From an uncultured Rheinheimera sp. (GTDB taxonomy: Bacteria > Pseudomonadota > Gammaproteobacteria > Enterobacterales > Alteromonadaceae), in the NCBI GenBank assembly GCA_966244125.1, contig CBIMJC010000001.1:1-56058 (forward strand): 56,058 bases of DNA. The letters run 5' to 3'. Positions 4,279-56,058 of this stretch are shown here, one piece after another (the stretch's first letter is position 1; the number at the start of each line of letters is the position of its first letter). The position numbers and the translations under genes were made by a program. The notes under the pieces were generated by a model that worked only from the letters and a program-made list of their open reading frames with translations, searched no databases and was not told the origin of the DNA.

Positions 4279-4318
4279 TCCGGATCATGTGTTTTGCTGC
4301 AGAGGGTAAAGAAACCAG

Positions 4319-7289: not shown

Positions 7290-7394
7290 GCAACACATAG
7301 AGATTTGATTATACGAGTCATAAAAACTCGCTATTTTTCGACAGCTTAGAGCTGTGATTAATATAGACAGACCAATAAGTTGAAGGGGAAGTTT

Positions 7395-12084: not shown

Positions 12085-12214
12085 GCTCCCACTCCTGAAG
12101 TGAAAATGTCCCATTTGGCTTGTTCTTTTTTAATTCTGTTTGCTCAATAAACAACCTGATGCCGTTTTAATCTACATACTTTGTTATATTGATGCAATAT
12201 TAAAACAAATATAA

Positions 12215-15648: not shown

Positions 15649-15724
15649 ATAAATCTTTTTTTGTTGATTTATCCATCAGTGCAGCGTTTAATACAAACAG
15701 AGCCGTCATATGGAGAGAATAGCC

Positions 15725-16402: not shown

Positions 16403-16435
16403 GTTGTGGGAGCACCAGTAAGGAAATCAACAGCG

Positions 16436-23254: not shown

Positions 23255-23256
23255 AA

Positions 23257-25623: not shown

Positions 25624-25633
25624 TCCATCCGCC

Positions 25634-26458: not shown

Positions 26459-26459
26459 G

Positions 26460-27920: not shown

Positions 27921-27964
27921 GGGTTCTCTCTTTTTCACATCGCCGTGGAGCGGGCTGCGCTGCT

Positions 27965-30755: not shown

Positions 30756-31496
30756 TTATTCACCGCGAAGAATGGCGCGTAACTGTTCACTGGCTGGCGT
30801 ACCAATCAGGCCTTCAATACGTTTCCACACTGGGTCTATTTCCGGGCTGAAAATAGCGGCGCGATTGGCTTTGTCGCGGCTGACCAGCTCGGCGGCAGAA
30901 ACCGGGCTGTCGACGCCTTTGTCGATCAGGCCATACCAATACTGCAGATAGGCTTCGACATGGCTGAACAAGGTTTTAAAAGCAGGTTCTGTGGCGCGGT
31001 GCACCAACATCCAGGGCGACATAATGGCGCGCTGACGCGGCGTGATATGGGCGTGCTCTATACCTTCGATGGCTTCAGCGGCATTAAATTGGTCGGTTAA
31101 GGGCCAGAACACCTGATTCAGGTAGTTGGTGTGGGCACCTAAATCGACCCTTGGGGTTAAATCCAGGTGGAAGGCAAAATGTTCGCCTGCTTTGACTGAG
31201 TCGAGGGTAAAGTGCGGCACAGCGCTGTCGGCTGGCATAAAGCCGTACAGCATGTGGGAGTCCAGCTGAATTTGCGGCACCACTATGGAGCAGGTCACCA
31301 GCTTGTTCAGCGGGCCACCTTCAAACAGCCGTACTTTGCCGACAGCACCCTGGGCCATAGGCAGATGGCTGACTAAGGTCATAAAAGGGCCACCGTCGCT
31401 GGCCAGCACTTCATGCATGCCATATTTGGCGACTATCTTGTCGACAGTGCTGTCGGATAAATCCTGAGCTAAAGATAATTCTGTAGTTTGGGACAT
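30756..31496 (-). CDS. RCC-reductase / ferredoxin-dependent bilin reductase-like protein 1
   Basis: GF..DSAVPHFTLD...F.LDLTPRVDL....YL, R...SPW, YL.YW, RD...R, DP follow the RCCR/FDBR pattern as recalled. Confidence 0.72.
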   Translation of the reverse strand: MSQTTELSLAQDLSDSTVDKIVAKYGMHEVLASDGGPFMTLVSHLPMAQGAVGKVRLFEGGPLNKLVTCSIVVPQIQLDSHMLYGFMPADSAVPHFTLDSVKAGEHFAFHLDLTPRVDLGAHTNYLNQVFWPLTDQFNAAEAIEGIEHAHITPRQRAIMSPWMLVHRATEPAFKTLFSHVEAYLQYWYGLIDKGVDSPVSAAELVSRDKANRAAIFSPEIDPVWKRIEGLIGTPASEQLRAILRGE

Positions 31497-36019: not shown

Positions 36020-36793
36020 TTACTTCATCGAAAATTCCATCTCAAACTGGTATTGGTCCGGGCGGTATACGGCATACATATGATCAAAAAGTTCGCCGTT
36101 TTTGTCGTACATGGAACGGTCCAGTACCAGCAGTGGTTTACCTGTCGGAATACCTAAGTGCATGGCGGTATCCACATTCGACAAAGTTGCAGTCACTGAC
36201 TGTTTCACTTTGCCCAGATGCAACTCAATACCGGCCATACGGAAGATATCCATACGTGACATTTTCAGCAGGTTTTCTTCGCTGTACACATCGCCTATAT
36301 CACGGGTCCAGCTGCCGTAGTAACCAAAAGGTATGCCGTCTGACAAACGTACCCGTTGTGATTGGATCAGCTGGGTTTCGCCATCAATACCAAAACGCTC
36401 CTGAATATCCAGTGGCGGAATAGCTTTGCGGAACATCAGTGACTGCACCTGAGTTTCACGGCCCATAATGGCAAGGCTTTCCAGTAAACCGGAAATAGGG
36501 GCGTTTAACTGCTCGGCACGATGCTTATAGGTCACATGGGAACCTTTGCCTCTGTGACGGCTGATATAACCTTCTTCGGCCAACTCATCCATAGCGCGTT
36601 TGGCGGTAATTCTGGACACCCCAAATACATCGGATAATTGATGCTCTGTTGGCATTTTTTCGCCGTAAGGGATCTCGCCCAGATGAATTTTTTCCTTCAG
36701 AAACAAATACACCTGATGGTACAGCGGAGTTGGTACGTCGCTTAAGATGGCTTGTTTTAAGCGTGGATCAGCTAACAGTTGTTCAAATGTCAT
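36020..36793 (-). CDS. GntR/HutC-subfamily regulator with UTRA domain
   Basis: PLYHQV, PTE..L...FGVSRIT..RA..EL..EG...R..GKGS; C-terminal UTRA-like (Y..YRPD.Y). Confidence 0.93.
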   Translation of the reverse strand: MTFEQLLADPRLKQAILSDVPTPLYHQVYLFLKEKIHLGEIPYGEKMPTEHQLSDVFGVSRITAKRAMDELAEEGYISRHRGKGSHVTYKHRAEQLNAPISGLLESLAIMGRETQVQSLMFRKAIPPLDIQERFGIDGETQLIQSQRVRLSDGIPFGYYGSWTRDIGDVYSEENLLKMSRMDIFRMAGIELHLGKVKQSVTATLSNVDTAMHLGIPTGKPLLVLDRSMYDKNGELFDHMYAVYRPDQYQFEMEFSMK

Positions 36794-36908
36794 AAGCTCA
36801 TTCTTTTTGAGGGTGATTTTACCGGGGCAGTGAGTTTTATTCAGTTGCACTCAGCATAGCCCGAGTCACCGGTTTTTGTGAAACGCTTAAAAAAATAGCA
36901 AGTTACTA

Positions 36909-37195: not shown

Positions 37196-37972
37196 ATGGA
37201 TAACTACCAAATAGCACGCCGTGCTCAAATTGGCGTCATTATTCCTTCCACCAACACTGGAGTGGAGTATGACCTGCAGAAGTTACGTATTGATGGCGTA
37301 ACCTGGCACCCGTCGCGCTTTTTTATTGAGTTACGTAACTGGGCCGATGAAGTGGCCAAAACAGGTGAAACCGACAACCAGGTGTTTGAACGTTTTCTGG
37401 AAATTATGCGTGGTGAGATCCCTTATTCAATTCGTAACGTACTCAGTGCCAAGGTAAATCACATTATGCTTGGCATGTCGGCTGAGACCTTCTGGGGTGG
37501 CCTCGAGGGCAATATTGCTTTTGAACGTGATATTAAAAATCAGATTGGTGATTTGGGTTTAACCACCGGGGCCGGGGCCACTAAAGACGCGCTGGAAAAA
37601 TTTGGCTGTAAGAAGATCTCTGTCATTACGCCCTATCCTCAGGTGGGTGATGAAAACGTGATCCGCTTTTTCAGTGATATCGGCTTTGAAGTACACAAGG
37701 TCAAAGGCCTGAACCGGCCTTCAGCCACGGCTATAGCCGAAACCTCGATCAAGCAGGTGGTGGACGCTATTTATGAAGTGGATGCTGATGACGTGGACTG
37801 CATTATTCAATGCGGCACCAATTTATCGACTGTGGATATCTTCCCCAGTTTTGAACATATTCTGGGCAAACCTATGTTGCCTATTAACACCTGCACCGTC
37901 TGGCATGCGCTGCGAGCCTGTGGTGTGAATGACAAAATTACCGGTATGGGGCGTTTGCTGGAAGAGTTCTAG
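37196..37972 (+). CDS. Asp/Glu racemase superfamily (maleate isomerase / arylmalonate decarboxylase-like), copy 1
   Basis: IGVIIPSTNT.VE, ISVITPY, GTNL, LGKP...IN....WHALR. Confidence 0.85.
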   Translation: MDNYQIARRAQIGVIIPSTNTGVEYDLQKLRIDGVTWHPSRFFIELRNWADEVAKTGETDNQVFERFLEIMRGEIPYSIRNVLSAKVNHIMLGMSAETFWGGLEGNIAFERDIKNQIGDLGLTTGAGATKDALEKFGCKKISVITPYPQVGDENVIRFFSDIGFEVHKVKGLNRPSATAIAETSIKQVVDAIYEVDADDVDCIIQCGTNLSTVDIFPSFEHILGKPMLPINTCTVWHALRACGVNDKITGMGRLLEEF

Positions 37973-39163: not shown

Positions 39164-39200
39164 TTGTGTTCATAAGATGATTAACCTTTGGATCCTAACC

Positions 39201-40400
39201 ATGAATAAACCTTTAGCGGGCATCCGGATTATTGACCTGACCCATATGTTATCCGGGCCTTATGGCGCGATGATTTTATCGGATATGGGGGCTGACACTA
39301 TTAAAGTCGAGCCACTGCAGGGCGAAGGTACACGCAAGCTGCTGGCTTCGGATCCAAAAAATTCGCTGGATGGTTTTGGTGCTTATTACATTACATTGAA
39401 CCGTAATAAACGTTCTGTTGCTATCGATCTGAAAACGGACGAAGGCAAACAAGTGTTTTATCAGCTGGTGCAGCAAGCTGACGTGGTGATCAGCAATTTT
39501 GGTCCCGGTGTGCCGGAGCGTCTGGGCATTGATTACGACAGCCTCGCCAGGTACAACCCACGCATTATTACCTGCACTATTACCGGCTTTGGCTCAAGTG
39601 GACCAGCGGCAAACAGACCGGCTTTTGATCAGGTGGCGCAGGCCTTTGGTGGCGGCATGTCTATTACAGGCCACCACACAGATGAACCCATTCGGGCCGG
39701 TATTCCTATTGGCGATCTGGGCGGCGGTATGTTCAGTGTGATGGGGATTCTGGGCGCTATTATTGAGCGGCAAAGCAGCGGCAAAGGCCAGCATGTGGAT
39801 ATCTCCATGCTTGACTGTCAGATTTCGATGTTGAATTACATGGCCACCATGCACTTTTTGTCGGGCGAAGACCCTTACCCTATAGGCAATTCTCACTTTG
39901 TGCATGTGCCGTACAACAGTTACAAAACCAGGGATGGTCACATTATTCTGGCGGTGATCACGGACAACTTCTGGCAGAACCTGAAAAAGGTAGTGAAAGT
40001 GCAGGAGTTTGAGGACGAAAAGTACGATACCCAGCCCGGACGTTTTGCCGACAAAGCTTTTATCGACGCCACACTGAACAGCATTCTGGCGACCAATACC
40101 AATGCCCATTGGATCCGCCTGCTGGAAGAGGCCCGAATTCCCTGCGCTCCGGTGAACAAATTCAGCGATGCGTTAAACGACTCGCAGGTCCGGCATCGCA
40201 ATATGGTGGTTGAATTACACCACCCGGACGGTAAAAAAACTCAGGGGCCGGGCCACCCCATCAAAATGTCGCGCAGCAATGAAGAAAGTTTTTCGCCAGC
40301 CCCTCATATAGGTCAGCACACCGATGATGTGTTGTCTGCACTGCTGAATTTCTCTGCGGCTGAAATCAGCGAGTTAAAGAGCAAGGGCATTGTGGCCTGA
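39201..40400 (+). CDS. CaiB/BaiF (family III) CoA-transferase, copy 2
   Basis: PLAGIRIIDL, DMGADTIKVEP, NRNKRS, PIGDLGGG. Confidence 0.93.
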   Translation: MNKPLAGIRIIDLTHMLSGPYGAMILSDMGADTIKVEPLQGEGTRKLLASDPKNSLDGFGAYYITLNRNKRSVAIDLKTDEGKQVFYQLVQQADVVISNFGPGVPERLGIDYDSLARYNPRIITCTITGFGSSGPAANRPAFDQVAQAFGGGMSITGHHTDEPIRAGIPIGDLGGGMFSVMGILGAIIERQSSGKGQHVDISMLDCQISMLNYMATMHFLSGEDPYPIGNSHFVHVPYNSYKTRDGHIILAVITDNFWQNLKKVVKVQEFEDEKYDTQPGRFADKAFIDATLNSILATNTNAHWIRLLEEARIPCAPVNKFSDALNDSQVRHRNMVVELHHPDGKKTQGPGHPIKMSRSNEESFSPAPHIGQHTDDVLSALLNFSAAEISELKSKGIVA

Positions 40401-40414
40401 GGGGTGGAAAAAGC

Positions 40415-41335
40415 ATGAGCGAATTTGTCCGAATTAACGATGTAGGCCCACGTGACGGCCTGCAAAATCAGGCCAAAGTATTAACGCCAGAGCAGCGGAT
40501 CCAGCTTATTCATGCTTTGGTTGATGCCGGCTTGCCTGCTATTGAAGTGGGCAGTTTTGTTTCCCCCAAAGCTGTGCCTGCTATGGCCGGAGCTGCGGAA
40601 ATTGTCACCAGTCTGAATCAGGCCGGTGTGAATAAAACAGCCTATCTGCAGTCGTTGGTGCCAAACCAAAAAGGTTATGAGCTGGCAAAAGCAGCAGGAG
40701 CTGAAGCCGTGTTGCTGGTGGTCTGTGCCTCTGAAACCATGAATCAGAAAAATGTGCGTATGGGCATTCAGGATGGTCTGGCGCAGGCGCGCGACATCAT
40801 TCAGCAGGCTAAAGCCGATGCGATAGATGTATTGGCCTGTATAGCTGTGGCCTGGGAATGTCCTTTTGAAGGCAAAACCGACCCTAAAGTGGTGTTGGAT
40901 ATGGCGGCGCTGCTCAGTAGTTTTGGCGCTGATGAGCTGGTGATTGCCGACACTATTGGTGCTGCGACACCCAGGGCTGTGCACAGCCTGATGCGGCAGC
41001 TGAAAGCTCAGCAGCCAGAGCAGTTACTGGCCTGCCATTTTCATGATACCCGCGCTATGGGGCTGGCCAATGTCTATGCCGCACTGGAGGCGGGGATCCG
41101 CCGTTTCGACGCTTCGGTCGGTGGTTTGGGCGGTTGTCCTTTTGCACCCGGAGCCACCGGCAATATTGCGACTGAAGATGTGGTGATGATGCTGCAGCAA
41201 ATGGGTCTGCACACCGGTATAGATTTAACGAAATTAATGGCAGTAGGTCAGTTGGCTGGTGAGATGACCGGCACTGTGACAGGTGGCCGTGCCCATCAAT
41301 GGCGCAGTTTACAGCTGCAAAAAAACGGGCTCTGA
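40415..41335 (+). CDS. HMG-CoA lyase family acyl-CoA lyase, copy 2
   Basis: [28 protein letters not shown]. Confidence 0.92.
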
Positions 41336-41393
41336 GGGTCGGCTGATCCTTATCCTTTATTCCTGTATCCGAGCAGAAAGAATAAAACAGATC

Positions 41394-42830
41394 ATGAATG
41401 GACAAACACTGTACGACAAAATCTGGCAAGCGCATCTGGTGTCTGGTGATGACGAATCGGCGCTGATTTACATTGACCGCCATATCATCCATGAGGTGAC
41501 TTCAGCTCAGGCCTTTGAAGGGCTGAAACTGGCCGGTCGTTCTGTCTGGCGCAGCGATTCGATTCTGGCAACACCTGATCATCAGGTGCCCACCACAGAC
41601 AGGGACAAAGGCAAAGCAGGTTTTACCGATAAGCTGGCTTTATTGCAGGTAACAACGCTGGACGATAACTGTGATGAACATCAGATCGCCTACTTTAAGC
41701 TGCAAGACCAACGTCAGGGCATAGTGCATGTGGTCGGGCCGGAGCAAGGGGCTTCTTTGCCCGGCATGACCATAGTCTGTGGTGACTCTCATACCTCAAC
41801 CCATGGTGCTTTTGCCACTTTGGCTCAGGGTATTGGCACCTCTGAGGTGGAGCATGTGCTGGCCACTCAGTGTCTGCAGCAGAAAAAGTGCAAAAACCTG
41901 CGGATCCGGGTTGAAGGCAAGCTGCAGTTTGGTGTCACGGCCAAAGATATGATTTTGCATATTATTGCGCTGTTAGGCACAGCAGGCGGCACAGGTTATG
42001 CCATTGAATACGCAGGTTCAGCCATTCGCAGTTTATCTATGGAAGGCCGTCTGACGGTGTGCAATATGACGATAGAAGCAGGCTCTGCTATTGGCATGAT
42101 TGCCTATGATCAGGTGACAGAAGACTATCTGCGTGACAGGCCTTATTCGCCTAAAGGTGAAATGTGGGATCAGGCGGTGTTGTACTGGCGCACTTTGGTC
42201 AGCGACAGCAATGCCAAATTTGATAAAGAACTGGTGATCCGGGCTGAAGATATTCAGCCGCAGGTCACCTGGGGCACTAAGCCGGATCAGGTGGTGCCTG
42301 TGACTGCTGCTGTTCCTCCGCTGACCGCTGCCAAAGACCCGGTGCAGCGGTCCGACTGGCAAAGGGCCTTGCAGTATATGGGGCTGGAGCAAGGTGCAGC
42401 CATGACTGATTTGAAGCTGGATCAGGTGTTTATTGGTTCCTGCACCAATGGCCGGATTGAAGATATCCGTGCTGTTGCCAAAGTGGTCAAGGGCAAACAA
42501 GTGGCGCCCTCCATTAAACGCGCCATGGTGGTGCCGGGCTCCGGCCTGGTGAAACAGCAGGCCGAAGCTGAAGGACTGGATAAAATTATCACAGCGGCGG
42601 GGCTGGAATGGCGTTATGCCGGCTGCTCTATGTGTAATGCGATGAACCCGGATTCGCTGGCCAGTGGCGAACGTTGTGCTTCCACCTCCAACCGCAATTT
42701 CGAAGGCCGGCAAGGGCAAGGCGGCCGTACCCATCTGGTCTCTCCGGCTATGGCGGCTGCTGCAGCTATAGCAGGGCATTTTGTTGATATCCGTCAGGTA
42801 GCACTGGCGCAACTGGAAGGGGAGCTGTAA
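41394..42830 (+). CDS. leuC: LeuC-like hydratase large subunit, copy 2
   Basis: [44 protein letters not shown]. Confidence 0.92.
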
Positions 42831-43471
42831 TGGCCGCTTTTAGGACACATCAGGGTCTGGTTGCTCCTATGGACAGAGCAAATGTTGATACCGATGCCAT
42901 GATGCCCAAGCAGTACCTCAAATGTATTTTCAAAACAGGTTACGGTGGCTGGGCCTTTGATGACTGGCGTTATCTGGACGCAGGGGATGTCGATATAGAT
43001 GTCAGCACCAGGCGGCTGAACCCGGACTTTGAGCTGAATTTTCCCGCTTATCAGGGCGCCAGCATTTTATTGGCGCGGGAGAATTTTGGTTGTGGTTCCA
43101 GTCGTGAACACGCGGTCTGGGGTATCCGGGATCTGGGTTTTAAGGTGATTATCGCCACCAGCTTTGCCGATATTTTTTACAATAACTGTTTTAACAATGG
43201 GATTTTGGCGATCAGCCTGGATCCGGAGCAGATTGACCTGTTGTTTCAGCGGGCTGCAGAGGGATTGCAACTGACCGTCGATTTAGAACAATGTCTGGTG
43301 TTATTGCCCGATGGCGGACAGATGGCTTTTCAGATCGAACCCAAACGCCGGGAGAAAATGTTAAAAGGTCTGGATAACGTGGCCACCACTTTATTGCAGC
43401 GCCAGGCCATTCAGTCCTTTGAAAGCCGCCACCGCGGCAGCCACCCTTATTACTTTTTAAGCTTGAGGTAG
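42830..43471 (+). CDS. leuD: LeuD-like hydratase small subunit, copy 2
   Basis: NVDTDAMMPKQYL, NFGCGSSREHA; TAATG overlap. Confidence 0.92.
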   Translation: MAAFRTHQGLVAPMDRANVDTDAMMPKQYLKCIFKTGYGGWAFDDWRYLDAGDVDIDVSTRRLNPDFELNFPAYQGASILLARENFGCGSSREHAVWGIRDLGFKVIIATSFADIFYNNCFNNGILAISLDPEQIDLLFQRAAEGLQLTVDLEQCLVLLPDGGQMAFQIEPKRREKMLKGLDNVATTLLQRQAIQSFESRHRGSHPYYFLSLR

Positions 43472-43558: not shown

Positions 43559-44719
43559 ATGCCGATTTTATTTTTCACAGTGCTGATTGACCTGATAGGT
43601 TTTGGCATGGTGATCCCGATTTTACCTTTTATGGCGCCGCAGTTTGGCGCCAGCCAATTCGATATTGCCATGTTGATCGTTGTCTACTCTGTCTGTGCCG
43701 GTCTGGTCGGAGGCTGGTGGGGCAAACTCAGTGACAGACTGGGCCGAAAACCTGTGATTATCTTTTGCCTGCTGGTGACAGCTTTGTCTTATCTGTTGCT
43801 GGCTTTTGCTACCAGCTTAACGGCGGTCTATGTCGCCCGTATTGTGGCGGGCAGTGTCGCCGGTATTTATGGTGTGGCGTCTGCTATGGTGGCGGACTTA
43901 TCCAGCCCGGAGCAACGCGCCAAAAGTATGGGCTTCATAGGTTCAGCTTTTGGTTTGGGTATGGTGGGCGGCCCTTTTTTAGGAGGGGTTCTGGCAGGGG
44001 ATGAGATTAACTTCTTTTTGCCCTCTATGGTGGCGGCCAGTTTATCTGTAGTGGCAGCTCTGTTGGCTATGCTGAAGTTGCCTGAATCCCACGGCCGGGA
44101 GCAGCGCCTTGCCTACAAGGCCTGGCGCAACGAAACCGGCAAAGTCCGTTTTATGCAGTTGCTGAAACAAACCCGCAACAGCTGGCTGATCACTGAGTTT
44201 TTATTGCACTCTATGCTGGTCTCCACCGTCACTTATCTGTTTCCGCTCTGGATGGGCGAAATCTGGCACTGGGGGCCGACTCAGGTGGGGATAGTCTTTG
44301 GCATTCAGGGGCTGTTGATGGCTGTGCTGCAGGCCAAACTGGTGGGCGTATTGAGCCATAAGTTTGGTGAACTCAATGTACTGACTGGGGCTATTGTGCT
44401 GCTGACTTCTGGTTTTGTATTGGCGAGTCTGGCGGAGCAGGAACACTGGATGATCCTGAGTTTCTTTTTAGCTATTACAGGGGCCAGCAGTTGCTCGCCA
44501 GTGCTGAATGCTTTGTTGTCTAAGCGCACGCCACTGGAATACCGTGGCCGCATGATGGGCAGTGCCAGTGCTATGGGGGCATGGGGCCGGGTATCCGGGC
44601 CTTTGCTGGCTGGTACTTTATTGACTTTTTCCGGTTTTTCTTTGGCCTGGGCTGCTGGCATTCTGGTGGGCTTGCTGTTTTTAAGCTGGCCTTTGTACGA
44701 ACGCAAGAGCCAGCATTAG
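43559..44719 (+). CDS. MFS transporter, TetA/DHA1-like
   Basis: D.IGFG..IP, GKLSDRLGRKPV, G.AFGLG...GP..GG motif C. Confidence 0.92.
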   Translation: MPILFFTVLIDLIGFGMVIPILPFMAPQFGASQFDIAMLIVVYSVCAGLVGGWWGKLSDRLGRKPVIIFCLLVTALSYLLLAFATSLTAVYVARIVAGSVAGIYGVASAMVADLSSPEQRAKSMGFIGSAFGLGMVGGPFLGGVLAGDEINFFLPSMVAASLSVVAALLAMLKLPESHGREQRLAYKAWRNETGKVRFMQLLKQTRNSWLITEFLLHSMLVSTVTYLFPLWMGEIWHWGPTQVGIVFGIQGLLMAVLQAKLVGVLSHKFGELNVLTGAIVLLTSGFVLASLAEQEHWMILSFFLAITGASSCSPVLNALLSKRTPLEYRGRMMGSASAMGAWGRVSGPLLAGTLLTFSGFSLAWAAGILVGLLFLSWPLYERKSQH

Positions 44720-45591
44720 CTGGCATCGTATTTTTTCGCTTGCTCCAGCAGCTGGTCTGCATCAAGCAACTGGTTGATTTGATTGAGGTCCAGCAGAGGC
44801 TGGCTGAACTGACGGGTTTCGCCATGCTGCTTAATATGCTGCAGCAACGCCTGAGCTGTGGGCACAAAGACATGCAGCAGCGCCACAGGGTAGAGTGCTA
44901 ACCTGTAGCCCAATTCAGCTAACTGGGCTGCACTGGCGACAGGGCTGGCACCGCCTTCGACCAGGTTATGCACCAGCGGTACTTTGCTGCCAAACTCCCG
45001 GGCTATCAGCTGCATCTGCTCCAGGCTTTTTGGTGCTTCGATAAAGAGTAAATCGGCACCGGCGTCCAGATAACGGCGGGCTCTTTCCATCGCATCGTCA
45101 AAACCTGTCACGCCCAGAGCATCGGTGCGGGCCACCAGCAGGGTTTGTTCACTGCTTCTGCTGTCGACAAAGGCGTGAATTTTACCGACCATCTCGGCGC
45201 AGCTGACCACATTTTTACCTTTCATATGGCCGCAGCGTTTGGGCATCACCTGATCTTCCATTTGCATGGCGCTGGCCCCGGCGCGCTCAAACACCCGCAC
45301 CGTACGCTGTACATTCAGCGCATTGCCAAAGCCTGTGTCTATATCGACAACCAACGGCAGCTCGCTGATTTCACGCATCAGCGCAATGCACTGGGCCACT
45401 TCGCTCATGCTAATCAGGCCCAGATCCGGTATACCAAAACGGGAAAAGGCTAGTCCGGCGCCTGAGACAAAACCAAGCTCAAAACCGGCCTGCTCCACCA
45501 GCCGGGCGCTCAGGCCGTCGAATACCCCCGGCGCTTTGAGCACAGCGGGTTTGGCCAGCGCTTGTTGCAGTCGTTGACTGTGTGTGGTCAT
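44716..45591 (-). CDS. Isocitrate lyase/PEP mutase family lyase (2,3-dimethylmalate / 2-methylisocitrate lyase-like)
   Basis: PGVFDGLSA, DIDTGFG, EDQ..PKRCGH, ARTDA. Confidence 0.9.
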   Translation of the reverse strand: MTTHSQRLQQALAKPAVLKAPGVFDGLSARLVEQAGFELGFVSGAGLAFSRFGIPDLGLISMSEVAQCIALMREISELPLVVDIDTGFGNALNVQRTVRVFERAGASAMQMEDQVMPKRCGHMKGKNVVSCAEMVGKIHAFVDSRSSEQTLLVARTDALGVTGFDDAMERARRYLDAGADLLFIEAPKSLEQMQLIAREFGSKVPLVHNLVEGGASPVASAAQLAELGYRLALYPVALLHVFVPTAQALLQHIKQHGETRQFSQPLLDLNQINQLLDADQLLEQAKKYDAS

Positions 45592-45601
45592 GGTAGCGCC
45601 C

Positions 45602-46381
45602 CTATGCCGGAATACTGGTGTGTTCGGCCAATAAGGAACCAAAACCACGAATACGATCCGGAATACCGTTGCTGCGCAGCGCGTGCCAGAAGGTCAGCGC
45701 ATTGATAGCCAGCACTGGTTTGCCAAGCTCCAGTTCCAGTTGGGCAGCCAGCTCAACAAAATACAAATTAGTGCCTGCCTGTAAAATCAGGTCCACATCA
45801 TCACCATTGACCTGATCCACCAAAGCGCGGGTTTTGGCAAAATCTTCATGCGCAATCTCCACAGGACCTGGCGAACAGTGTCCGGCAATTCGTACCACTT
45901 CGTAGCCGATATCGGCCATAAATTTCACCACCTGATTGTCACCTACCGGCATATAAGGCGAAATCACGCCAATACGTTTTACTTTGGGGTAACATTTCAG
46001 CGCATCCATAATGGCCTGAGCACCAAAGGTGATGTTGCAGTGGCCTTTAGCCTGTGCTATGTCGTTGTATTTTTTGAATTCGCGGTCTGAGCGGCCTTTG
46101 CCGTCCCAGAAGGTTTCTGCTGAATAGCCAAAAATGACATGGTCGGGACGACAAGTCAGGGCATCCAGCAAACCTTGTTCTGTGGCCGCACCTATTGCTT
46201 GCACCATTTCGACAAATTCCTGCTCATTGGTCACTTTAAAGGGCGGGATCACACAGGCCCTGGTAGCCAACACCACACCTTCAGGGCACATTTTGTGGTA
46301 CTCAGTTTCTACTGCTGTGTTGGTGGATGGCACCAGTACAGCGAATTTTTTGCGGTAACCGTAATAATCCAGAGTTTTCAT
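45602..46381 (-). CDS. Asp/Glu racemase superfamily protein, copy 2
   Basis: VPSTNT.VE, SAETFW.G, SPY, AGTNL, LGKPV..IN...FWHALR; paralog of 37196. Confidence 0.85.
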   Translation of the reverse strand: MKTLDYYGYRKKFAVLVPSTNTAVETEYHKMCPEGVVLATRACVIPPFKVTNEQEFVEMVQAIGAATEQGLLDALTCRPDHVIFGYSAETFWDGKGRSDREFKKYNDIAQAKGHCNITFGAQAIMDALKCYPKVKRIGVISPYMPVGDNQVVKFMADIGYEVVRIAGHCSPGPVEIAHEDFAKTRALVDQVNGDDVDLILQAGTNLYFVELAAQLELELGKPVLAINALTFWHALRSNGIPDRIRGFGSLLAEHTSIPA

Positions 46382-48885: not shown

Positions 48886-48947
48886 CTGTTATTGCGCTCC
48901 GCTTGATCGCAGCATGCACTGCTTTTTATTTTTGCTATTTGACTAAA

Positions 48948-48965
48948 TGATATATTATTAATACA
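48948..48965. promoter_or_regulatory. Island operator palindrome, site 8 (TGATATATTATTAATACA)
   Basis: Divergent gap; consensus match. Confidence 0.7.
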
Positions 48966-49006
48966 TTATGTCTATCTTGAAGCAAGATCACAATAAAAGG
49001 CTGTGC

Positions 49007-49870
49007 ATGAAACTCTTTATTCTTGGTTTGGGCCATGTTGGAAAGGCTCTGGCGAAAAAGCTGAAAGCCGATGGTCATCAGGTGGTGGGCAGTACCACAA
49101 CAGAAAGCAAAGTGGCTGAACTGGAGTTACTGGTGGATACGGTAGTGGTGCTCAAAGGCGAAGAAAGCGCCAAAGTGGCGGCCGCTGCGGCGGGCTGCGA
49201 CGCCATTATTGTCACAGTGGCGCCTAATGTCCGCAACACCAGAACCAAAGAAGAGCGGGAGGTGCATTACGAGCAGGTGCTGGTGCGCAGCTGCCAGAGT
49301 GCAGCTTTGGCCTGCCCACGGGTGATCTTCTTATCGTCCTTTTCGGTGTATGGCGACGGTGGTGTGGGCACAGCAGCTATTGATGAGCTGACGCCAACCG
49401 CCAATCATCAGGAACCTTCCTCCAAATACTATCAACTGGCCGAACAGCAGGTGCTGAGCTCAGCAGCAGGCTGTGTGCTGCGTTTCCCTGATATGTACGG
49501 CGCGCCCGGCGATTTCAGCTTCCCACAGCGGGTGAAAATGGCCATTGATTATTTTGGTGGTAAAGCCATTTTCAGCGCTGATGCGCCTTTGTACGCCATC
49601 CATTTTGAAGATGTGGTGGACGCTGTGCATCACGTCATTCAGGCACAGCTTTGCGGCATTTATAACGTCTGCGACAACTCTCAGGTGCCTGCCACCAATA
49701 AAGAGGTGTTTGATGCTATCTGTGACCAAAACGACTGGCCACGTTTGCAGTTTCTCGACCAAATCAAAGCCCCGCTGCGCAAAATTTCTGCGGCAAAAAT
49801 TTACGCCACTGGCTATCAGGTGAAACACCCTGATCCAAACGCCCCTCTTGCCGCCAGCGCAACGGCCTGA
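49007..49870 (+). CDS. NAD(P)-binding extended/atypical SDR oxidoreductase
   Basis: ILGLGHVG Rossmann motif, FLSSFSVYG, AEQ.VL, G.YNV.D. Confidence 0.85.
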   Translation: MKLFILGLGHVGKALAKKLKADGHQVVGSTTTESKVAELELLVDTVVVLKGEESAKVAAAAAGCDAIIVTVAPNVRNTRTKEEREVHYEQVLVRSCQSAALACPRVIFLSSFSVYGDGGVGTAAIDELTPTANHQEPSSKYYQLAEQQVLSSAAGCVLRFPDMYGAPGDFSFPQRVKMAIDYFGGKAIFSADAPLYAIHFEDVVDAVHHVIQAQLCGIYNVCDNSQVPATNKEVFDAICDQNDWPRLQFLDQIKAPLRKISAAKIYATGYQVKHPDPNAPLAASATA

Positions 49871-49893: not shown

Positions 49894-50718
49894 ATGACGC
49901 GAATAGTAATTACCGGCAGCACCAAAGGCATAGGCAAAGGTCTTGCCGCTGAATTTGCCCGTTTAGGCCACAAAGTGGTGATCAGCGGCCGGCGGCAGGA
50001 TGATGTGGATGCCACTTTATCTGAATTGGGCTACCCATCTGAGCAACTGACAGGGCTGGCTTGTGACAGCGTCGACAACACTCAGGTGGAAGCCTTATGG
50101 CAATTCGCCTCTGAGCAGTTTGGTGGTGTGGATATCTGGATCAATAACGCAGGTTTGGCCAGAACGGTCTGGCCCATTCTCGACACGCCGGACAACGAAA
50201 TCCAACAGATGGTGCAGACCAATATTATCGGCACTATCAACGGCTGCAAAGTGGCGGCCAGCGGTATGAAAAAAGCCGCCAGGCAAAGCCTTGGCCTGGT
50301 CAGAGAGCCGCAGAAAATTTTCAATATGCTGGGTGGGGGCAGTGACGGCGAATACTTCACAGGTATGGGCGTGTACGGCACCACCAAAAGAGCACTCGAC
50401 TACTTCACCAGCGCTTTGAGTAAAGAGCTGCAGGCCGACCATATTCTGGTTGGCAAAATCCGCCCCGGCATGATCATTACCGAAGGCGTGATCCGTGAAG
50501 CTCAGGCGGATATGGACAATTTTGAAAAGCGCCGCAAGTTCGCCAACTTATTGTGTGATCACGTCGAAACCGTAGCGCCTTATCTGGCGCGGGAAATTCT
50601 CGCCCTGAATAAAACCGGCCGCAAAATCCGCTGGCTGACTCCACTGAAAATGACTGGCCGCATGCTGTCCGGTCTGATCCGGCCTGCGCCGGATAAATTC
50701 AGCCGTTATGGCCTGTAA
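49894..50718 (+). CDS. SDR oxidoreductase, NOL/NYC1 (chlorophyll b reductase)-like, copy 1
   Basis: ITGSTKGIG, DIWINNAG, IFNM.G.GSDG, YGTTKR, PGM..TE, N.L...VETVA.YL. Confidence 0.8.
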   Translation: MTRIVITGSTKGIGKGLAAEFARLGHKVVISGRRQDDVDATLSELGYPSEQLTGLACDSVDNTQVEALWQFASEQFGGVDIWINNAGLARTVWPILDTPDNEIQQMVQTNIIGTINGCKVAASGMKKAARQSLGLVREPQKIFNMLGGGSDGEYFTGMGVYGTTKRALDYFTSALSKELQADHILVGKIRPGMIITEGVIREAQADMDNFEKRRKFANLLCDHVETVAPYLAREILALNKTGRKIRWLTPLKMTGRMLSGLIRPAPDKFSRYGL

Positions 50719-50753: not shown

Positions 50754-51578
50754 ATGTCAGTGACTAAAAATAAAGAAACCAAAACCCTTGATGAATTTTT
50801 GGCTGAAAACCCGAATGTGGATGTCAGCCGTTACTGGGAGCGCTGCTGGGGCATTCTGACTGCGCTGAAACAGAAGATCACCAGCAGGTTTCCACACCTC
50901 AATCAGCACCCTTCCACTTTTGATCGTGAGTACTACACCTCACCCAATGGTGAGTTTGAAGGTTCTTATGCCGCCTGGACAGGCAACGGTGTGGAGTGGC
51001 TGGTCAATTCCTGGATAGGTAACCGCAAAGCCAGCATTCTGGATATGAACACCACTGCCTTTTTGGGGCAGGAAACCGACGTTCCTCATCTGGTTATTGT
51101 GTTTGGCACTGTGCCTAAGTTGTTTTGTTATTGCGACTACACCCCGCGCAAGAACCTGCTGACCGACGTGGCTTATCTGGACAAGTACTACGGCCCGGAC
51201 GTGAACGACTGGTATATGAAGCTGCGCTCTCACCCGAATTTTCACTGGTCAGTCAGTCACGGCAGTTATATGCGCGCTCTGATCAACCCGGCCACGCAAA
51301 GCTTAATGGGGGAGTTAAACGACGAAAACATCAGCATTTTCGAAACCTATCTGCATGAAATGGTTGACCGCTGGCTGGGCTGGTTAGACAAGGCCACTCC
51401 AGTGCCGGAAGCCGAACGTGCTGAACTGCAACGCAATGACCACATTATCCGTGAAATGAGTTACCGCCGTGACCCGATGAACAAACTGGCGGCCAATGTG
51501 TTTGGTCAGGCGGAAGTGGAAAAGATGATTGAGCTGCGCATGGGCAAAGCGCAAATCGACGCCAACGCCAGCTATTAA
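50754..51578 (+). CDS. RCC-reductase / ferredoxin-dependent bilin reductase-like protein 2
   Basis: VEWLVNSWI, FL..ETDVPHL, DYTPRKNL..D..YL.KYY, S...YMRA..NP, ERAELQRND..IR, DP......FG. Confidence 0.78.
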   Translation: MSVTKNKETKTLDEFLAENPNVDVSRYWERCWGILTALKQKITSRFPHLNQHPSTFDREYYTSPNGEFEGSYAAWTGNGVEWLVNSWIGNRKASILDMNTTAFLGQETDVPHLVIVFGTVPKLFCYCDYTPRKNLLTDVAYLDKYYGPDVNDWYMKLRSHPNFHWSVSHGSYMRALINPATQSLMGELNDENISIFETYLHEMVDRWLGWLDKATPVPEAERAELQRNDHIIREMSYRRDPMNKLAANVFGQAEVEKMIELRMGKAQIDANASY

Positions 51579-51610
51579 CGGCTGATACAGGTGCAACAAG
51601 GAGGCGACAA

Positions 51611-52948
51611 ATGATGGAGCAGGTGCAATCGGCAGCCGCTAAAAAATTCTTTGGCGTCCAGCTGGTGGATGGTCTGAAGCGCCGTAACTGGCTGACGTAT
51701 TTGTTTGCGGTGCTGATTTCGTCAGGTTATGCCGGAGCTTTGTCGATACTGCAGCCCGGTCTGTTGCAGGTGATGGGTATTCCTTATGCCGAACAGGCCA
51801 AACTCACCGGGCTTTTGGGTGGGCTACAGGAACTGGTGTTTATCCTGATGATGGGGCTTTATGGGGTGCTGGCCGATCGGTTTGGCCGGCGGGCTATTTA
51901 TGTCTTTGGTCTGGCGACCACTGCATTGGGTTTTGCGCTTTATGGCAGTGCCAGCTCTGTAGAACAGTTGGTTGCCTACCGGCTGATAGTGGCTTTTGGC
52001 TCCGCCGCTATGGTCGGCATGATGGTGACAGTAGTAGCTGACTATTCAGCGGACTGCAGCCGCGGCAAAGCCAATGGCTTTCAGGGTGCTATTGCGACCC
52101 TGGGGGCTTTTATTCCGCCTGTACTGGCCGGTTTACCACAAAGTTTTGTTGCACAGGGGTATAGCGAAGCGGCTGCCCAGCAGGCCACTTTTGCTGTGGC
52201 CTCAGCTTTGGGCGTTATTGCTGCTGTGGTGGCGCTGCTCGGCTTGTCAAATCAGGTCGGTAAAGTGCTGAGCGCACAAAAAGAGCCCTTGCTGCGGTTG
52301 CTGCGTCAGGGCGCTGTGGCGGCGAAAAAACCTGCTATTGCCTTGTCTTATGGTGCTGCTTTTATCTCCCGTGGCGATCTGGCGGTCACCGGCGCTTTTA
52401 TGGGGCTCTGGCTGGTGCAACATGGCACAGGCTCCCTTGGTCTCTCAACCAGTGATGCCATGGCACAACTGGCAATGCCCGCCATTTTAATGGTGGTATC
52501 AGGCGCTCTGGTCGGTTCCATTCTGACAGGTTATCTGAGTGACAAAGTCAGCCGTATTACTGCAGTTGCCATAGCGTCCGGATTGGCCGGCACTGTGTAT
52601 GGCGCGATGTTTTTTGTCAGCGATCCGACAGCCTCCTGGGTATTCCCACTGCTTTTTGTCATGGGCATAGCCGAAATCAGTGCTTTTGTCTCCAGTCAGG
52701 CCTTAGTAGGTGAACAGGCGCCAGCTGAGCGTAAAGGTGCCGTCATAGGTTTGTTTGGTGTAGCAGGCGCTATCGGCATTCTGGTCGCGACCACGGGCGG
52801 TGGTTTCCTGTTTGCTCATTGGTCCCCTTCCAGCCCCTTTGTGCTGTTTGGGGTGCTTAATTTCATCGTGTTTATCTGGAGTCTGTTGCTACGCAGACGC
52901 AACTCCAACTCCTTAGCCAATTCATTATTAACAGAACAACGTATTTAA
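51611..52948 (+). CDS. MFS transporter (paralog of 34115-35419)
   Basis: GVLADRFGRR; shares IAL.YGAAF.SR..L...GAFM.LWL with 34115. Confidence 0.92.
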   Translation: MMEQVQSAAAKKFFGVQLVDGLKRRNWLTYLFAVLISSGYAGALSILQPGLLQVMGIPYAEQAKLTGLLGGLQELVFILMMGLYGVLADRFGRRAIYVFGLATTALGFALYGSASSVEQLVAYRLIVAFGSAAMVGMMVTVVADYSADCSRGKANGFQGAIATLGAFIPPVLAGLPQSFVAQGYSEAAAQQATFAVASALGVIAAVVALLGLSNQVGKVLSAQKEPLLRLLRQGAVAAKKPAIALSYGAAFISRGDLAVTGAFMGLWLVQHGTGSLGLSTSDAMAQLAMPAILMVVSGALVGSILTGYLSDKVSRITAVAIASGLAGTVYGAMFFVSDPTASWVFPLLFVMGIAEISAFVSSQALVGEQAPAERKGAVIGLFGVAGAIGILVATTGGGFLFAHWSPSSPFVLFGVLNFIVFIWSLLLRRRNSNSLANSLLTEQRI

Positions 52949-52965
52949 TCCGACAAGGTAAAACC

Positions 52966-53817
52966 ATGACACAAAGCCAAGTTGAAACTAAACCCATGAT
53001 GACCGAAGAGTTCGCACGCCATCTGGCCAGCGGACTGAAAATGGATACCAGCGCGATTTACACTGAAGTGTTAGCACTGCGGGATCGTATTTGGGACTAT
53101 ATCAGTTCAGAGCTGGCCTTTACCGAAGATTTGGGCTGCGAAGATATCCACGAGTTCACCGATTTAGCAGGTAATCCGCTGGGCAGAATGCGTAACTTTA
53201 CCGGTCAGGGCGATAATCCGGTGGATTGGGTGATCCATTCCAACATTGGTTTGCCGGAAAACACCTTTACCAACATTCACCTGACCTTCTGGATGAAAGA
53301 CAACACCGACATTCCGCATCTGGGTCTGGCCTTTGGCACCTTACCTGAAGCTTTTTATTATGCCGACCTGATGCCACGTTATGAGCTGGTTACGCACCCG
53401 AATTATGTGGAAAAATATTACGCCCCTGTTAATCAGCTGGCGCTGGATCACCAGAAAGCCTTATTTCAGGATGGGGTGAAACCTTTTCATGCCGCTATGC
53501 CTTTTATTCGGGCCAGCATCAGCCCTTGTGCTATTTGTGGTGTGGGACCGCTGGCGTTTTTTCAGCAGCATGCCCGGGAGCAGATCATGAGCATGGTGAA
53601 ATACTGGGTCGGATTAGTGAAGAAGGCGCAGCCCGATACCGATCCGGAAGCTTGTGCGCAAAGGCGTCTGCATGATTATCAGCAACGCAAGAATATAGTT
53701 TATCTGGACCCGGCTAACCCTATAGCGGAGCGTCTGGTGGGTAAAAAGGCGGCGGACCGACTGGTCAGGATACTGGCAGGTGAAGAACGTAATGGCGTAC
53801 CCTACGCTCAGATCTGA
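52966..53817 (+). CDS. RCC-reductase / ferredoxin-dependent bilin reductase-like protein 3
   Basis: VDWVIHSNI, FW...TDIPHL, DLMPRYELV..PNYVEKYY, FIRASISP.A, DP......G. Confidence 0.78.
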   Translation: MTQSQVETKPMMTEEFARHLASGLKMDTSAIYTEVLALRDRIWDYISSELAFTEDLGCEDIHEFTDLAGNPLGRMRNFTGQGDNPVDWVIHSNIGLPENTFTNIHLTFWMKDNTDIPHLGLAFGTLPEAFYYADLMPRYELVTHPNYVEKYYAPVNQLALDHQKALFQDGVKPFHAAMPFIRASISPCAICGVGPLAFFQQHAREQIMSMVKYWVGLVKKAQPDTDPEACAQRRLHDYQQRKNIVYLDPANPIAERLVGKKAADRLVRILAGEERNGVPYAQI

Positions 53818-53853: not shown

Positions 53854-54585
53854 ATGTTGAAAAAGATTGTGCCCGGCATTGCCGCTGTGCTGGTGCTGGC
53901 TGTGGCTGGCACCTTAGGCTGGATGAGCATTCCTTTTGCGTATCAGCAGGAAGAAACCGCAGCAGCGCTGGTGTCGACCGATCAGGTGCAGGTGACTCAG
54001 GGCGATTTTATCAGCTTTGCGCCAGCACACAGCACGCCAGACAAAGGCATAGTGTTTTATCCGGGCGGTAAAACCAAAGCTGAAACCTTTGCCCCTTTGC
54101 TGCGGCGTTTTGCTGAGCAGGGTTATCTGGCGGTGATAGTGCCTATGCCATTTAACACCGCCTTTTTGGGCATCAGCAAAGCGGATCAGGTGGTTGCCGC
54201 ATTTCCTGCAGTACAGCAGTGGGTGATAGCCGGGCATTCGTTAGGCGGCGTGGCGGCGTCTGAATATGTCAAAACTGCCGATCTGAACCGCTTTAAAGGC
54301 TTGTTATTGCTGGCTTCTTATCCGGCCAGCGATATCAGTCAGTTGGCTATTGCCGTCAAGTCGATTTCCGGCTCAAAAGACCTGCAATCCACCCCTGAAA
54401 AAATCAACGCCAACAAGCCGAAGTTGCCGGCCAACACCAGCTATGTGGTGATCGAAAACGCCAACCACTGGCAGTTTGGATCTTTTGCGGCACAAGATGA
54501 ACAGCAGCAGGGCTTGCTCAGTCCGTCAGAACAGGCGGAGCAGGTATTTGCCCAAAGCTTAGCCTTTTTACAGAGCCTGCCCTGA
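53854..54585 (+). CDS. Membrane-anchored/exported alpha/beta hydrolase (esterase-like)
   Basis: N-terminal TM, FYPGG, GHSLGG, GSKD, NANH.QFG (S-D-H triad). Confidence 0.88.
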   Translation: MLKKIVPGIAAVLVLAVAGTLGWMSIPFAYQQEETAAALVSTDQVQVTQGDFISFAPAHSTPDKGIVFYPGGKTKAETFAPLLRRFAEQGYLAVIVPMPFNTAFLGISKADQVVAAFPAVQQWVIAGHSLGGVAASEYVKTADLNRFKGLLLLASYPASDISQLAIAVKSISGSKDLQSTPEKINANKPKLPANTSYVVIENANHWQFGSFAAQDEQQQGLLSPSEQAEQVFAQSLAFLQSLP

Positions 54586-54618: not shown

Positions 54619-55407
54619 CTAGCTGAATAAATCCCGCTTCTTAAAACCAGCCGTCATAAAGCGGACAAAGGCTTTGCCTCCTGTTAACCAGGCCACTTTG
54701 CTACCGGATTTATCGCTGGCGAGAATGCCGTTGACCAGCCATGGCGTCACGGTTTCTACGGTATCGCCGAGGATATTGAAGATCTTTTTTACTTTCAGCC
54801 ATTCGGCGGAAGAGGTGTCGTAATCACCCACTAATAAATCTGTCACCACTATGCCGGGGCTTAAGGTATTGACCTGCACAGCTGTGCCTTTGACTTCTTT
54901 TTGCAGTGATTTATTCAGGTAAGTGACGGCTCTTTTGGTGGCACCGTAAATCGTCATGCCGGGTTGAGTGGCATCATTGCTGCCAAAACCTTCCATATTC
55001 CAGAGCTGGCCATGGTTTTGTGCTTTCATGCCTTTTAACGCAACACTACTCGCCAGTGCCACACCCGTTAAATTAGTAGCAATAATGCTGTGGATGGCGG
55101 CGGGGTCCTGCTGTTCCAGTGGTTTGCGCGGCAGACTGATGCCGGCGTTGTTGATCCAGATATCTACAGCCGAGAAGGTGGCAACCGCATGGTCCCATAC
55201 CGCCTGTAGCTGGTCGTAGCTGCTGACATCACAAGCCAGTCCTGTTACCTGATCGGCACTGAACTGATGTGCAAACTGCGCCACCACTTCATCGACCTGT
55301 GGCTGAGAGCGGCCGGTAATCACCACCTTGCAGCCCTGTTTTAAAAAGTTTTCGGCCAGCCCTTTGCCTATGCCACGGGTACTGCCGGTGATAATCACTG
55401 TTTTCAT
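54619..55407 (-). CDS. SDR oxidoreductase, NOL/NYC1-like, copy 2
   Basis: ITGSTRGIG, CDV, DIWINNAG, NMEG.GS, YGATKR, KSLQ.E, LSPG.V.TDLL, FNIL. Confidence 0.82.
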   Translation of the reverse strand: MKTVIITGSTRGIGKGLAENFLKQGCKVVITGRSQPQVDEVVAQFAHQFSADQVTGLACDVSSYDQLQAVWDHAVATFSAVDIWINNAGISLPRKPLEQQDPAAIHSIIATNLTGVALASSVALKGMKAQNHGQLWNMEGFGSNDATQPGMTIYGATKRAVTYLNKSLQKEVKGTAVQVNTLSPGIVVTDLLVGDYDTSSAEWLKVKKIFNILGDTVETVTPWLVNGILASDKSGSKVAWLTGGKAFVRFMTAGFKKRDLFS

Positions 55408-55468: not shown

Positions 55469-55510
55469 AATGTAAGCTGGTGAACAGAGTAAATAGCAGC
55501 AGGATCAGTG

Positions 55511-56058
55511 ATGACAGCGGTTTTTCCCATTGGCAGTGTTGGTCATACCTTAATGCAGCTCAGAGGCACCTGGCACGACAGTGTTGAGTTATTTCATTTG
55601 GATGGCAGCCCACTAGTTGACGATACCCTGGCCGGCAGTGGCACCCCGGGCCAGTCGCCTTTTGACAATCTGGTGTATATAGATTTTGACGGGGTAAATT
55701 TTAAAATCACCAATGTGCATTTTCGTGGCCGGCCGGCTCTGGCTAAAACCTTTACCGGTCAGTTAAAAGACGGGGTGCTGGTGTTTGACGCTATGGGTCC
55801 CGGCAGTTACGAAAATGTCGGCATGTCCGGCGGCCCCGGCATACTGACCTTCAGCGCAAGGCAGTTAAACCAGGCCACAGATGTGTATATCGAACCCGAC
55901 TTTATTATAGTGACAGCGCCAGGCCACAGAACAAGACACACAGTGCTCTACCGCAACGGCCAGGCCACCCGCACTTTAACGGCCAAAGGCGTTCGCTTAT
56001 CACCTTGTTGTCAGCAGCGGCACCCGCTCGATCCACGAGGCCCGGATGGTGAAGTGCA
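55511..56058 (+). CDS. Hypothetical protein, partial; probable calycin-like beta-barrel
   Basis: Not in the ORF track. ATG after AGGA; MTAVFPIGSVGHTLMQLRGTWHDSVELFHLDG... open to the window end; G-x-W start motif. Confidence 0.6.
   Translation, partial: MTAVFPIGSVGHTLMQLRGTWHDSVELFHLDGSPLVDDTLAGSGTPGQSPFDNLVYIDFDGVNFKITNVHFRGRPALAKTFTGQLKDGVLVFDAMGPGSYENVGMSGGPGILTFSARQLNQATDVYIEPDFIIVTAPGHRTRHTVLYRNGQATRTLTAKGVRLSPCCQQRHPLDPRGPDGEV

Follow-up and report, generated by a model that had tools for sequence, protein, structure and literature searches.

Three RCCR-like paralogs in a conserved catabolic island of a heterotrophic Rheinheimera, a probable chlorophyll catabolic regulon

Two RCCR-like genes and their relatives

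The window analysed here, a stretch of 56,058 nucleotides from an uncultured Rheinheimera sp. (contig CBIMJC010000001.1), carries two genes for proteins related to red chlorophyll catabolite reductase (RCCR), A (274 aa) and B (283 aa), with a gene for a major facilitator superfamily (MFS) transporter between them (Table 1). An earlier note, made from the sequence alone, had described these open reading frames (ORFs) as homologous RCCR-like genes in one operon of a heterotroph, and our results agree with that description. The alignment of A with B spans 276 columns with 26% identity (E 4e-25). Both exceeded the cut-off of Pfam RCC_reductase (PF06405; 49.1 and 46 bits, cut-off 24.9), and neither matched Fe_bilin_red (PF05996) at E<=0.001. 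The series atypical short-chain dehydrogenase/reductase (SDR), SDR1, A, MFS transporter, B and hydrolase has gaps of 17-36 nt (the first taken from stop to start), a spacing that fits a single operon. A recent local duplication as the source of A and B was rejected, since they share only 26% identity and each belongs to a subfamily of its own.

A and B belong, as one module, to a conserved island of about 50 genes that the earlier note had overlooked and that is probably a chlorophyll catabolic regulon. Nearly the whole window consists of catabolic genes, as judged by Pfam and the annotation of its ORFs. It forms contig C1 of a 4.16-Mb genome (G000; 491 contigs; rated 100% complete), and its GC content (50.8 against 47.8 +/- 0.9) is the highest of the 71 contigs longer than 15 kb. 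Among named relatives, Rheinheimera came closest (93-97%). Photosynthetic reaction-centre genes were not found in the host genome by a search whose control matched.

Arabidopsis RCCR was the best PDB sequence match for both A and B, at 20-23% identity to plant RCCR. A profile of 69 rows matched RCCR in the PDB with E 1.6e-24, HY2 with 2.7e-9 and PebB with 2.3e-7. The AlphaFold2 model of A (predicted local distance difference test, pLDDT, 93.7) had RCCR as its top Foldseek match (E 9e-13, template modelling score ~0.7) and contained the sandwich of the ferredoxin-dependent bilin reductases (FDBRs), as the earlier note had anticipated. In VIA-align, HY2, PebB and RCCR were tied (Z 24.7-25.4), and the ten chains with Z>=8 were all tetrapyrrole enzymes except one chloroplast motor subunit. 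This Ycf2-FtsHi subunit (8xqw_H, 8xks_P) shares the fold of A with Z 21 and may be an earlier example of this fold in a non-enzymatic role. By homology, B and the paralog C described below should share the alpha/beta/alpha FDBR sandwich.

We found 467 relatives of A. Plant RCCR rows formed a separate group in the tree (100/99), and A and B fell among the bacterial rows. Among viral contigs, 60 pattern matches included no relative, and a plasmid search gave no match for A and a single 42% match for SDR2. Three divergent RCCR-like proteins of 299-349 aa (P0204, P0216, P0226) had long low-complexity N-termini and are possibly of algal or protist origin. The expectation of the earlier note that genes of this type belong to phototrophs is contradicted by the relatives of A, together with the heterotroph homologs of a recent preprint discussed below.

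A third paralog and the distribution of the family

A third gene of the island encodes C, an FDBR/RCCR-type protein that matched B at 26% identity (E 2e-14) and the RCCR profile with E 5.7e-16, and stayed below the Pfam cut-offs (RCC_reductase 17.7 bits; Fe_bilin_red E 0.0023). In trees without an outgroup, A, B, C, a further subfamily D and plant RCCR each formed one group, and a sister grouping of A and B was retained (approximately unbiased test, p 0.42). B (five regions) and D (six) were mutually exclusive across the 11 island regions that we fetched, and the gene for D adjoins that of a Rieske oxygenase.

The RCCR profile was positive in seven out of 251 genomes of the family, with three matches in each. 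The paralog trio was also present in four of the five positives in one further set, in all three positives among 171 genomes (one being common to both sets), and in G007, G011 and G031. In total 16 out of 17 distinct positive genomes carried it, the exception being G641 with one match. The RCCR family was patchy (4/37 genomes of the genus, 0/24 others and 2/400 in the class).

Solitary A-type genes without B, C or D occurred at L148, L164, L169 and L183 (~9900-10850) and in G641, with neighbours that looked like housekeeping genes by eye. They could serve in pathway-independent pigment binding or detoxification. G641 also carries at least seven Rieske paralogs, 34-39% identical to the island enzyme.

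Active-site residues

The central-acid site was counted as the fifth position after a conserved Pro (111 in A, 117 in B), the offset for AtRCCR being set by the F218V pair. In the alignments it is occupied by Asp99 in GtPEBB, Glu154 in AtRCCR, Val116 in A and Ala122 in B. The earlier note had seen both this replacement and the retention of the C-terminal DP acid, and both held. Asp240 of A and Asp248 of B align exactly with GtPEBB Asp219, and lie one residue off, at Asp290, in HMMER alignments with AtRCCR. In AtRCCR itself we take Glu154 and the distal-loop Asp291 to be the functional acids. The loss is not special to the A/B pair, but the rule across subfamilies A, B and D: the site holds Val or Ile in 197 of 202 A rows (the other five were unread by the pattern) and Ala in all 11 B and all nine D rows. 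Asp occupies it in 14 of 15 C rows, and Glu or Asp in all six plant rows.

A second donor position, that of PcyA His88, equals AtHY2 Asp116 and lies 17 residues ahead of the central site, according to the accessible part of PMC13446030 (Table 2). It was His in 20/20 B and D rows (His105 of B, by spacing) and Asn in 202/202 A rows. Within the 20 B and D rows, Asn-x-His and the DP Asp did not vary, and neither did Asp97, Asn99, Arg174, Tyr237 and Asp240 across all 202 A rows. Asp97 of A stands two residues before Asn99, on the strand neighbouring the central-acid site.

In the available text of PMC6755814, Asp99 and Asp219 of GtPEBB are both essential. AtHY2 works without a central Asp, using Asp116 at the His88 position, and the pre-2 D91N variant retains activity (accessible parts of PMC6755814 and PMC13446030). 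Since HY2 and pre-2 D91N function, loss of the acid is no proof of lost catalysis, and with His105 at the position of PcyA His88 and HY2 Asp116, B is plausibly catalytic despite the missing central acid.

A may be a pigment-binding protein rather than an enzyme. It is possible, though we doubt it, that A and perhaps B are non-catalytic binders or shields of pigment and C the sole reductase, which would be compatible with a role of the island in chlorophyll breakdown. In favour of this, A has Val116 instead of the central acid and Asn99 instead of the His, GtPEBB requires its central Asp (PMC6755814, in the part available), genes of type A occur singly in housekeeping contexts of other lineages, and the island has no ferredoxin motif. 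Against this stand the residues invariant throughout the A and the B/D rows, the position of the D gene beside the Rieske gene, and the tolerance of HY2 and pre-2 to loss of the acid, as reported in the accessible parts of the two papers.

Content and conservation of the island

The genes of the window are listed in Table 1. Beyond the window end, G007 continues with genes for the Rieske oxygenase, a double-rubredoxin/reductase fusion, a lipoprotein hydrolase, a pheophytinase (PPH)-like hydrolase and a membrane protein. The host counterparts lie on contigs C320 and C312, with a 27-nt overlap between the two; C320 and C1 have no overlap. The lipoprotein hydrolase exceeds the Pfam Chlorophyllase cut-off, and the Rieske protein has the CxH..CxxH and mononuclear iron motifs and a VanA_C domain. 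In G007 the span from the PPH-like gene to A is 10.8 kb and contains chlorophyllase (CLH)-, PPH-, PAO- and RCCR-like genes, which in the host are split over C312, C320 and C1.

Table 1. Features of the window (positions in the 56,058-nucleotide stretch)
Feature	Position	Strand	Remarks
Second CoA transferase, HMG-CoA-lyase-like, LeuCD set, DUF4437 cupin	2873..8285		Accessory module, found in RCCR-negative genomes too
TonB-dependent receptor	9439..12114	-	
Flavin reductase	13975-14466		
DUF3598/BFA1-like double beta-barrel	14493..15482	-	Nitrobindin/CpeS-type fold in a weak model (pLDDT 57), a lead only
Isochorismatase-family amidase and two PuuE-type proteins	15710..18390	+	PuuE-type: candidate cyclic-imide hydrolases
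FAD monooxygenase	23756..24991	-	
Isochorismatase-family amidase and alpha/beta hydrolase	25012..26473	-	Hydrolase without GxSxG
Two aldehyde dehydrogenases	26460..29413	-	Pfam
Acyl-CoA-dehydrogenase (ACAD)-fold protein	29419..30687	-	Candidate flavin monooxygenase
C, FDBR/RCCR-type	30756..31496	-	Central Asp kept (PHFTLD), DP Asp kept
Nitrilase-family C-N hydrolase	31547..33229	-	Pfam
GntR/UTRA (HutC-type) regulator	36020..36850	-	Likely palindrome reader
Asp/Glu racemase (maleate isomerase) fold protein 1	37196..37972	+	
CoA transferase III, HMG-CoA-lyase-like, LeuCD-like hydratase	39177..43471	+	
Methylisocitrate/2,3-dimethylmalate lyase-like	44716..45648	-	
Asp/Glu racemase (maleate isomerase) fold protein 2	45602..46381	-	
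Palindrome WTGDTATAHCAW	48947..48958		Ahead of RCCR operon; further copies at 4114, 12214, 15614, 15638, 33332, 37110, 39153, 55450
Atypical/extended SDR (epimerase, NAD_binding_10)	48968..49870	+	Likely start 49007
Classical SDR1	49894..50718	+	TGxxxGIG, YGTTK
A, RCCR-like	50754..51578	+	Val116, Asp97, Asn99, Asp240
MFS transporter	51611..52948	+	In 10/11 fetched island regions
B, RCCR-like	52966..53817	+	Ala122, His105, Asp248; D stands in for B elsewhere
Alpha/beta hydrolase, candidate esterase	53854..54585	+	GHSLG, hydrophobic N-terminus
Classical SDR2	54619..55407	-	37.5% identity to SDR1
Conserved protein without family	55508..56056	+	Leaves contig; Rieske oxygenase next in relatives

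Sixteen genes were found in all 11 fetched island regions, which come from several families, despite reshuffling and identities down to ~40-60%. Absence was scored within the fetched regions only; G011, for example, has its Rieske and chlorophyllase-like genes on another contig. In most islands C lies within an operon of the order nitrilase-C-ACAD-fold-aldehyde dehydrogenase-aldehyde dehydrogenase-amidase-monooxygenase. Among the 251 family genomes, 15 had a Rieske match at E<=1e-20, and full-length orthologs (77-100%) were confined to the seven RCCR-positive ones. The same seven were exactly those with matches to the SDR1/2 family (at most ten candidates scored per genome), and also those with racemase-1 orthologs (79-100%; seven of 15 matches). 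In G769, which belongs to another family, median identity was 86% over 46 island genes and 66% over nine near-origin genes, which suggests that the island was laterally transferred.

The earlier note had spoken of NOL-like SDRs in the operon, and SDR1 may be NOL-like by its motifs; no named NOL/NYC1 sequence was among the matches obtained. In 32 database proteins (P0232-P0263), an SDR2 ortholog (42-63%) formed a fusion with an MFS transporter. Four island proteins (13223-13897, 33396-34106, 38020-39036, 47619-48407), three of them hydrophobic, fell below all Pfam cut-offs; they occurred in 10, 10, 7 and 9 of the 11 fetched regions, respectively. The island is broken at 19914-23266 by genes for a 494-aa membrane protein and a HipA-like kinase, which G007 lacks at the corresponding place and which seem to have been inserted later. 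An Ig-like (invasin/Big_1) lipoprotein gene at 3-1853 runs off the contig start and lies outside the island.

The isochorismatase-PuuE-PuuE module was also seen at RCCR-negative loci (L056-L069, in G236, G110, G303 and G144). Some of these add LeuCD, CoA transferase/lyase and GntR genes and ~40% identical monooxygenase or racemase paralogs, suggesting a sister route that handles a different ring compound.

A palindrome shared by the island operons

Reading seven intergenic gaps yielded the palindrome WTGDTATAHCAW, which we take to be of the GntR/HutC type. The window has nine matches, all intergenic; shuffled sequences gave 2.9 on average and 8 at most. The palindrome was present in 10/13 island promoter gaps, seven of which had served to derive it and the other six of which gave three matches, compared with 29/1172 gaps elsewhere and 9/320 AT-rich gaps. 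It precedes, among others, the dephytylase operon, the Rieske gene and genes of the lower pathway; of the three gaps matched outside the deriving set, one stands ahead of the Rieske/rubredoxin pair and another ahead of the hydrolase operon. Eight of nine other island regions had exact copies, with 22 inside the islands and one in the flanks. Scans for sigma-70 promoters and terminators gave results at chance level. The GntR protein of the island likely reads the palindrome, and the island likely forms a single regulon under its control.

Shewanella acanthi and previous reports

RCCRs of heterotrophs are not new, since a preprint on S. acanthi reports 1,193 prokaryotic RCCR homologs, many from heterotrophs (bioRxiv 10.64898/2026.03.19.712979), and RCCR-related sequences form the outgroup to FDBRs in the accessible text of PMC10151467. 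The available part of PMC9306834 treats the green lineage only. According to the preprint, all top chlorophyll-catabolic matches of S. acanthi lie inside ~11 kb, and a PPH/CLH double mutant loses pigment more slowly. Its substrate was a spirulina extract and not pure chlorophyll, and it calls the prokaryotic steps beyond Mg removal unexplored.

We looked up the 90% protein clusters of 20 host proteins. Three had no entry, and seven of the remaining 17 clusters included the species: the Rieske oxygenase (QYJ78811), B (78815), racemase 1 (78831), ACAD-fold protein (78838), monooxygenase (78843), PuuE1 (78848) and barrel (78850). The accessions QYJ78811-78850 follow the island order, with exact spacing up to 78843, and identity reached 87% for B, 97% for racemase 1 and 92% for the ACAD-fold protein. 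The SH-RCCR cluster of S. acanthi thus resembles the island in its near-identical proteins and their order, and its CLH/PPH/PAO/RCCR set fits the island end. Unlike the present analysis, the main text of the preprint treats only four or five plant-like genes and nothing past pheophorbide; it does not cover the trio, the missing acids, the rubredoxin fusion, the regulon or ~40 further genes. A literature search found no account of the paralog trio, shifted proton donors, regulon or lower pathway, though subscription papers or the preprint supplement could hold one. Nor did it find a bacterial tetrapyrrole-mineralising cluster, most subscription journals being outside its scope.

A proposed pathway

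In the pathway that we propose, the chlorophyllase-family lipoprotein and the PPH-like hydrolase would strip phytol outside the cytoplasm, and pheophorbide would be imported by the TonB receptor and MFS carriers. The Rieske oxygenase would then open the macrocycle as PAO does, with electrons from the NADH-rubredoxin-reductase fusion. The RCCR-like proteins are predicted to reduce the ring-opened pigment. B (or D) would reduce the red catabolite, His105 and Asp248 replacing the central Glu/Asp, and C (with both canonical acids) and A (Asp97 and Asp240) would act on other bridges or intermediates, unless A merely holds phototoxic pigment. No ferredoxin motif was found in the island, and we therefore propose rubredoxin or a housekeeping ferredoxin as the reductant.

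Formyl groups would pass to the SDRs and aldehyde dehydrogenases, and flavin monooxygenases could convert the freed pyrroles to maleimides. PuuE-type imidases and amidases would release ammonia. The alkylmaleates would yield pyruvate and short acids through LeuCD-like hydratases, the methylisocitrate-type lyase and the CoA-transferase/lyase pairs. By chemical reasoning these enzymes fit methyl-ethyl-, methyl-vinyl- and methyl-propionate maleates as the expected ring fragments. The S. acanthi experiment lends indirect support to dephytylation; all later chemistry is inferred, the maleimide route from family resemblance. The isochorismatase-family amidases match entries that include some we take to be maleamate amidases. 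PuuE-type proteins belong to a family that opens cyclic imides (PMC9304392, accessible part).

Three known systems invite comparison. The plant PAO/phyllobilin pathway with RCCR/ACD2 (PDB 2ZXL, 3AGA) shares the fold, the best matches and the co-occurrence of a Rieske enzyme with dephytylase-like hydrolases. In plants, however, the central Glu/Asp is kept, RCCR forms a separate clade and breakdown stops at tetrapyrrolic phyllobilins, whereas the island carries ring-destroying enzyme families and its Rieske protein lacks the PaO domain. The FDBRs (HY2, PebB, PebA, PcyA, pre-PcyA) share the sandwich fold (Z 22-25), the DP Asp (PebB Asp219) and, by spacing, His105 of B (PcyA His88/AtHY2 Asp116). 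Unlike them, A and B do not match Fe_bilin_red, and neither a heme oxygenase in the genome nor a ferredoxin motif in the island was found. The maleamate pathway of nicotinate degradation and the dimethylmaleate branch share with the island amidases, a maleate-isomerase fold, a LeuCD-type hydratase and the dimethylmalate-lyase family. Identities to these routes are low, however, and the isomerase Cys pair is absent from the island; nicotinate hydroxylase and NicX were not seen among the annotated window ORFs.

Contrary evidence and alternative readings

A number of observations weigh against a chlorophyll pathway running through the whole island. The PaO domain (PF08417) was not found in the island Rieske protein by a search whose control matched, and the best PDB matches of this protein are SxtT/GxtA-type and Ndm enzymes. 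An HCAR-type FrhB gene was searched for and not found, a search for SGR gave no match either for the gene or for its control, and G188 has no chlorophyllase-like gene. The racemase-fold proteins have SAET and GTN motifs instead of the Cys pair, at what we take to be the canonical maleate-isomerase positions, and their PDB matches are at fold level only (E 5.7e-9). PuuE1 orthologs occurred in 27 of the 251 family genomes (all seven RCCR-positive and 20 RCCR-negative), so the PuuE module is not exclusive to the island. The palindrome, most of whose counted gaps had also defined it, recurred in two of three RCCR-negative regions with paralogous modules. In the metagenome set (32 loci of at least 9 kb, out of 80 retained from 242), 13 loci had the island context and 19 carried a more distant A (53-56%) outside it, six of these having been inspected; the A-type gene of G641 (G641:C21:31264-32061) is likewise solitary. 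In the preprint the products were pheophytin and some pheophorbide, with no red or primary fluorescent chlorophyll catabolite (RCC/pFCC), and the acid control alone also dechelated chlorophyll. Because the gene content agrees and the corresponding span in G007 is 10.8 kb, we infer that the ~11-kb cluster of the preprint is the end of this island.

In one alternative, action on chlorophyll would be limited to the upper ~11 kb, for phytol scavenging and detoxification of phototoxic pigment, and the amidase, hydratase and lyase genes would serve another N-heterocycle. The PuuE/isochorismatase module does occur in the 20 RCCR-negative genomes, LeuCD1, HMGL1 and DUF4437 stand beside it in G110, G236 and G303, the products of the preprint stop at pheophorbide, and linkage on a mobile island would by itself explain the co-occurrence. 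We nevertheless consider such a division unlikely, given that C is embedded in the nitrilase-to-monooxygenase operon of most islands, that the 16 universal genes stayed together through reshuffling and divergence, and that one palindrome precedes upper and lower operons.

The island might instead degrade other tetrapyrroles (phycobilins, heme-derived bilins or bacteriochlorophyll), its plant-like gene set being a resemblance. A is structurally as near to HY2 and PebB as to RCCR, the Rieske protein is without a PaO domain, the barrel resembles nitrobindin/CpeS folds, and the preprint used spirulina extract. This reading seems improbable to us: profiles favour RCCR over bilin reductases by ~15 orders of magnitude, and open-chain bilins need neither a Rieske opener nor a chlorophyllase-family hydrolase, both of which are co-inherited and preceded by the palindrome. 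Moreover, heme oxygenase (PF01126) was not found in the 491 contigs of the host genome (the control matched in 3/14). Recruitment of the RCCR fold to aromatic or alkaloid catabolism, which the broad families of all other enzymes, the weak chlorophyllase and SDR labels and the resemblance of the Rieske protein to small-molecule demethylases and hydroxylases would allow, is very improbable in view of the tetrapyrrole enzymes that make up all but one of the Z>=8 chains, the trio retained in 16/17 genomes and the S. acanthi mutant phenotype, which indicates chlorophyll.

We therefore regard a chlorophyll catabolic regulon of a heterotroph as the probable identity of the island. Its extension to complete mineralisation within this single regulon, from dephytylation and Rieske opening through three RCCR-fold reductions with rubredoxin and relocated donors to ring breakdown into ammonia, pyruvate and short acids, is a tentative proposal that we hold with slightly more doubt than confidence.

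Implications

Chlorophyll production amounts to about a billion tonnes per year. The later part of the proposed pathway, from rings to ammonia and small acids, appears to be undescribed, and if the proposal is true, the island would be the first genetic route that destroys the tetrapyrrole rings themselves. For the steps after ring opening, which plants omit, it supplies a gene list, an operator and a cultured and engineered species (S. acanthi). A and B are natural variants of the RCCR fold without the canonical acid and would be useful for studying the mechanism of bilin reductases. The Rieske gene and the trio may serve as marker genes for chlorophyll turnover in water and soil.

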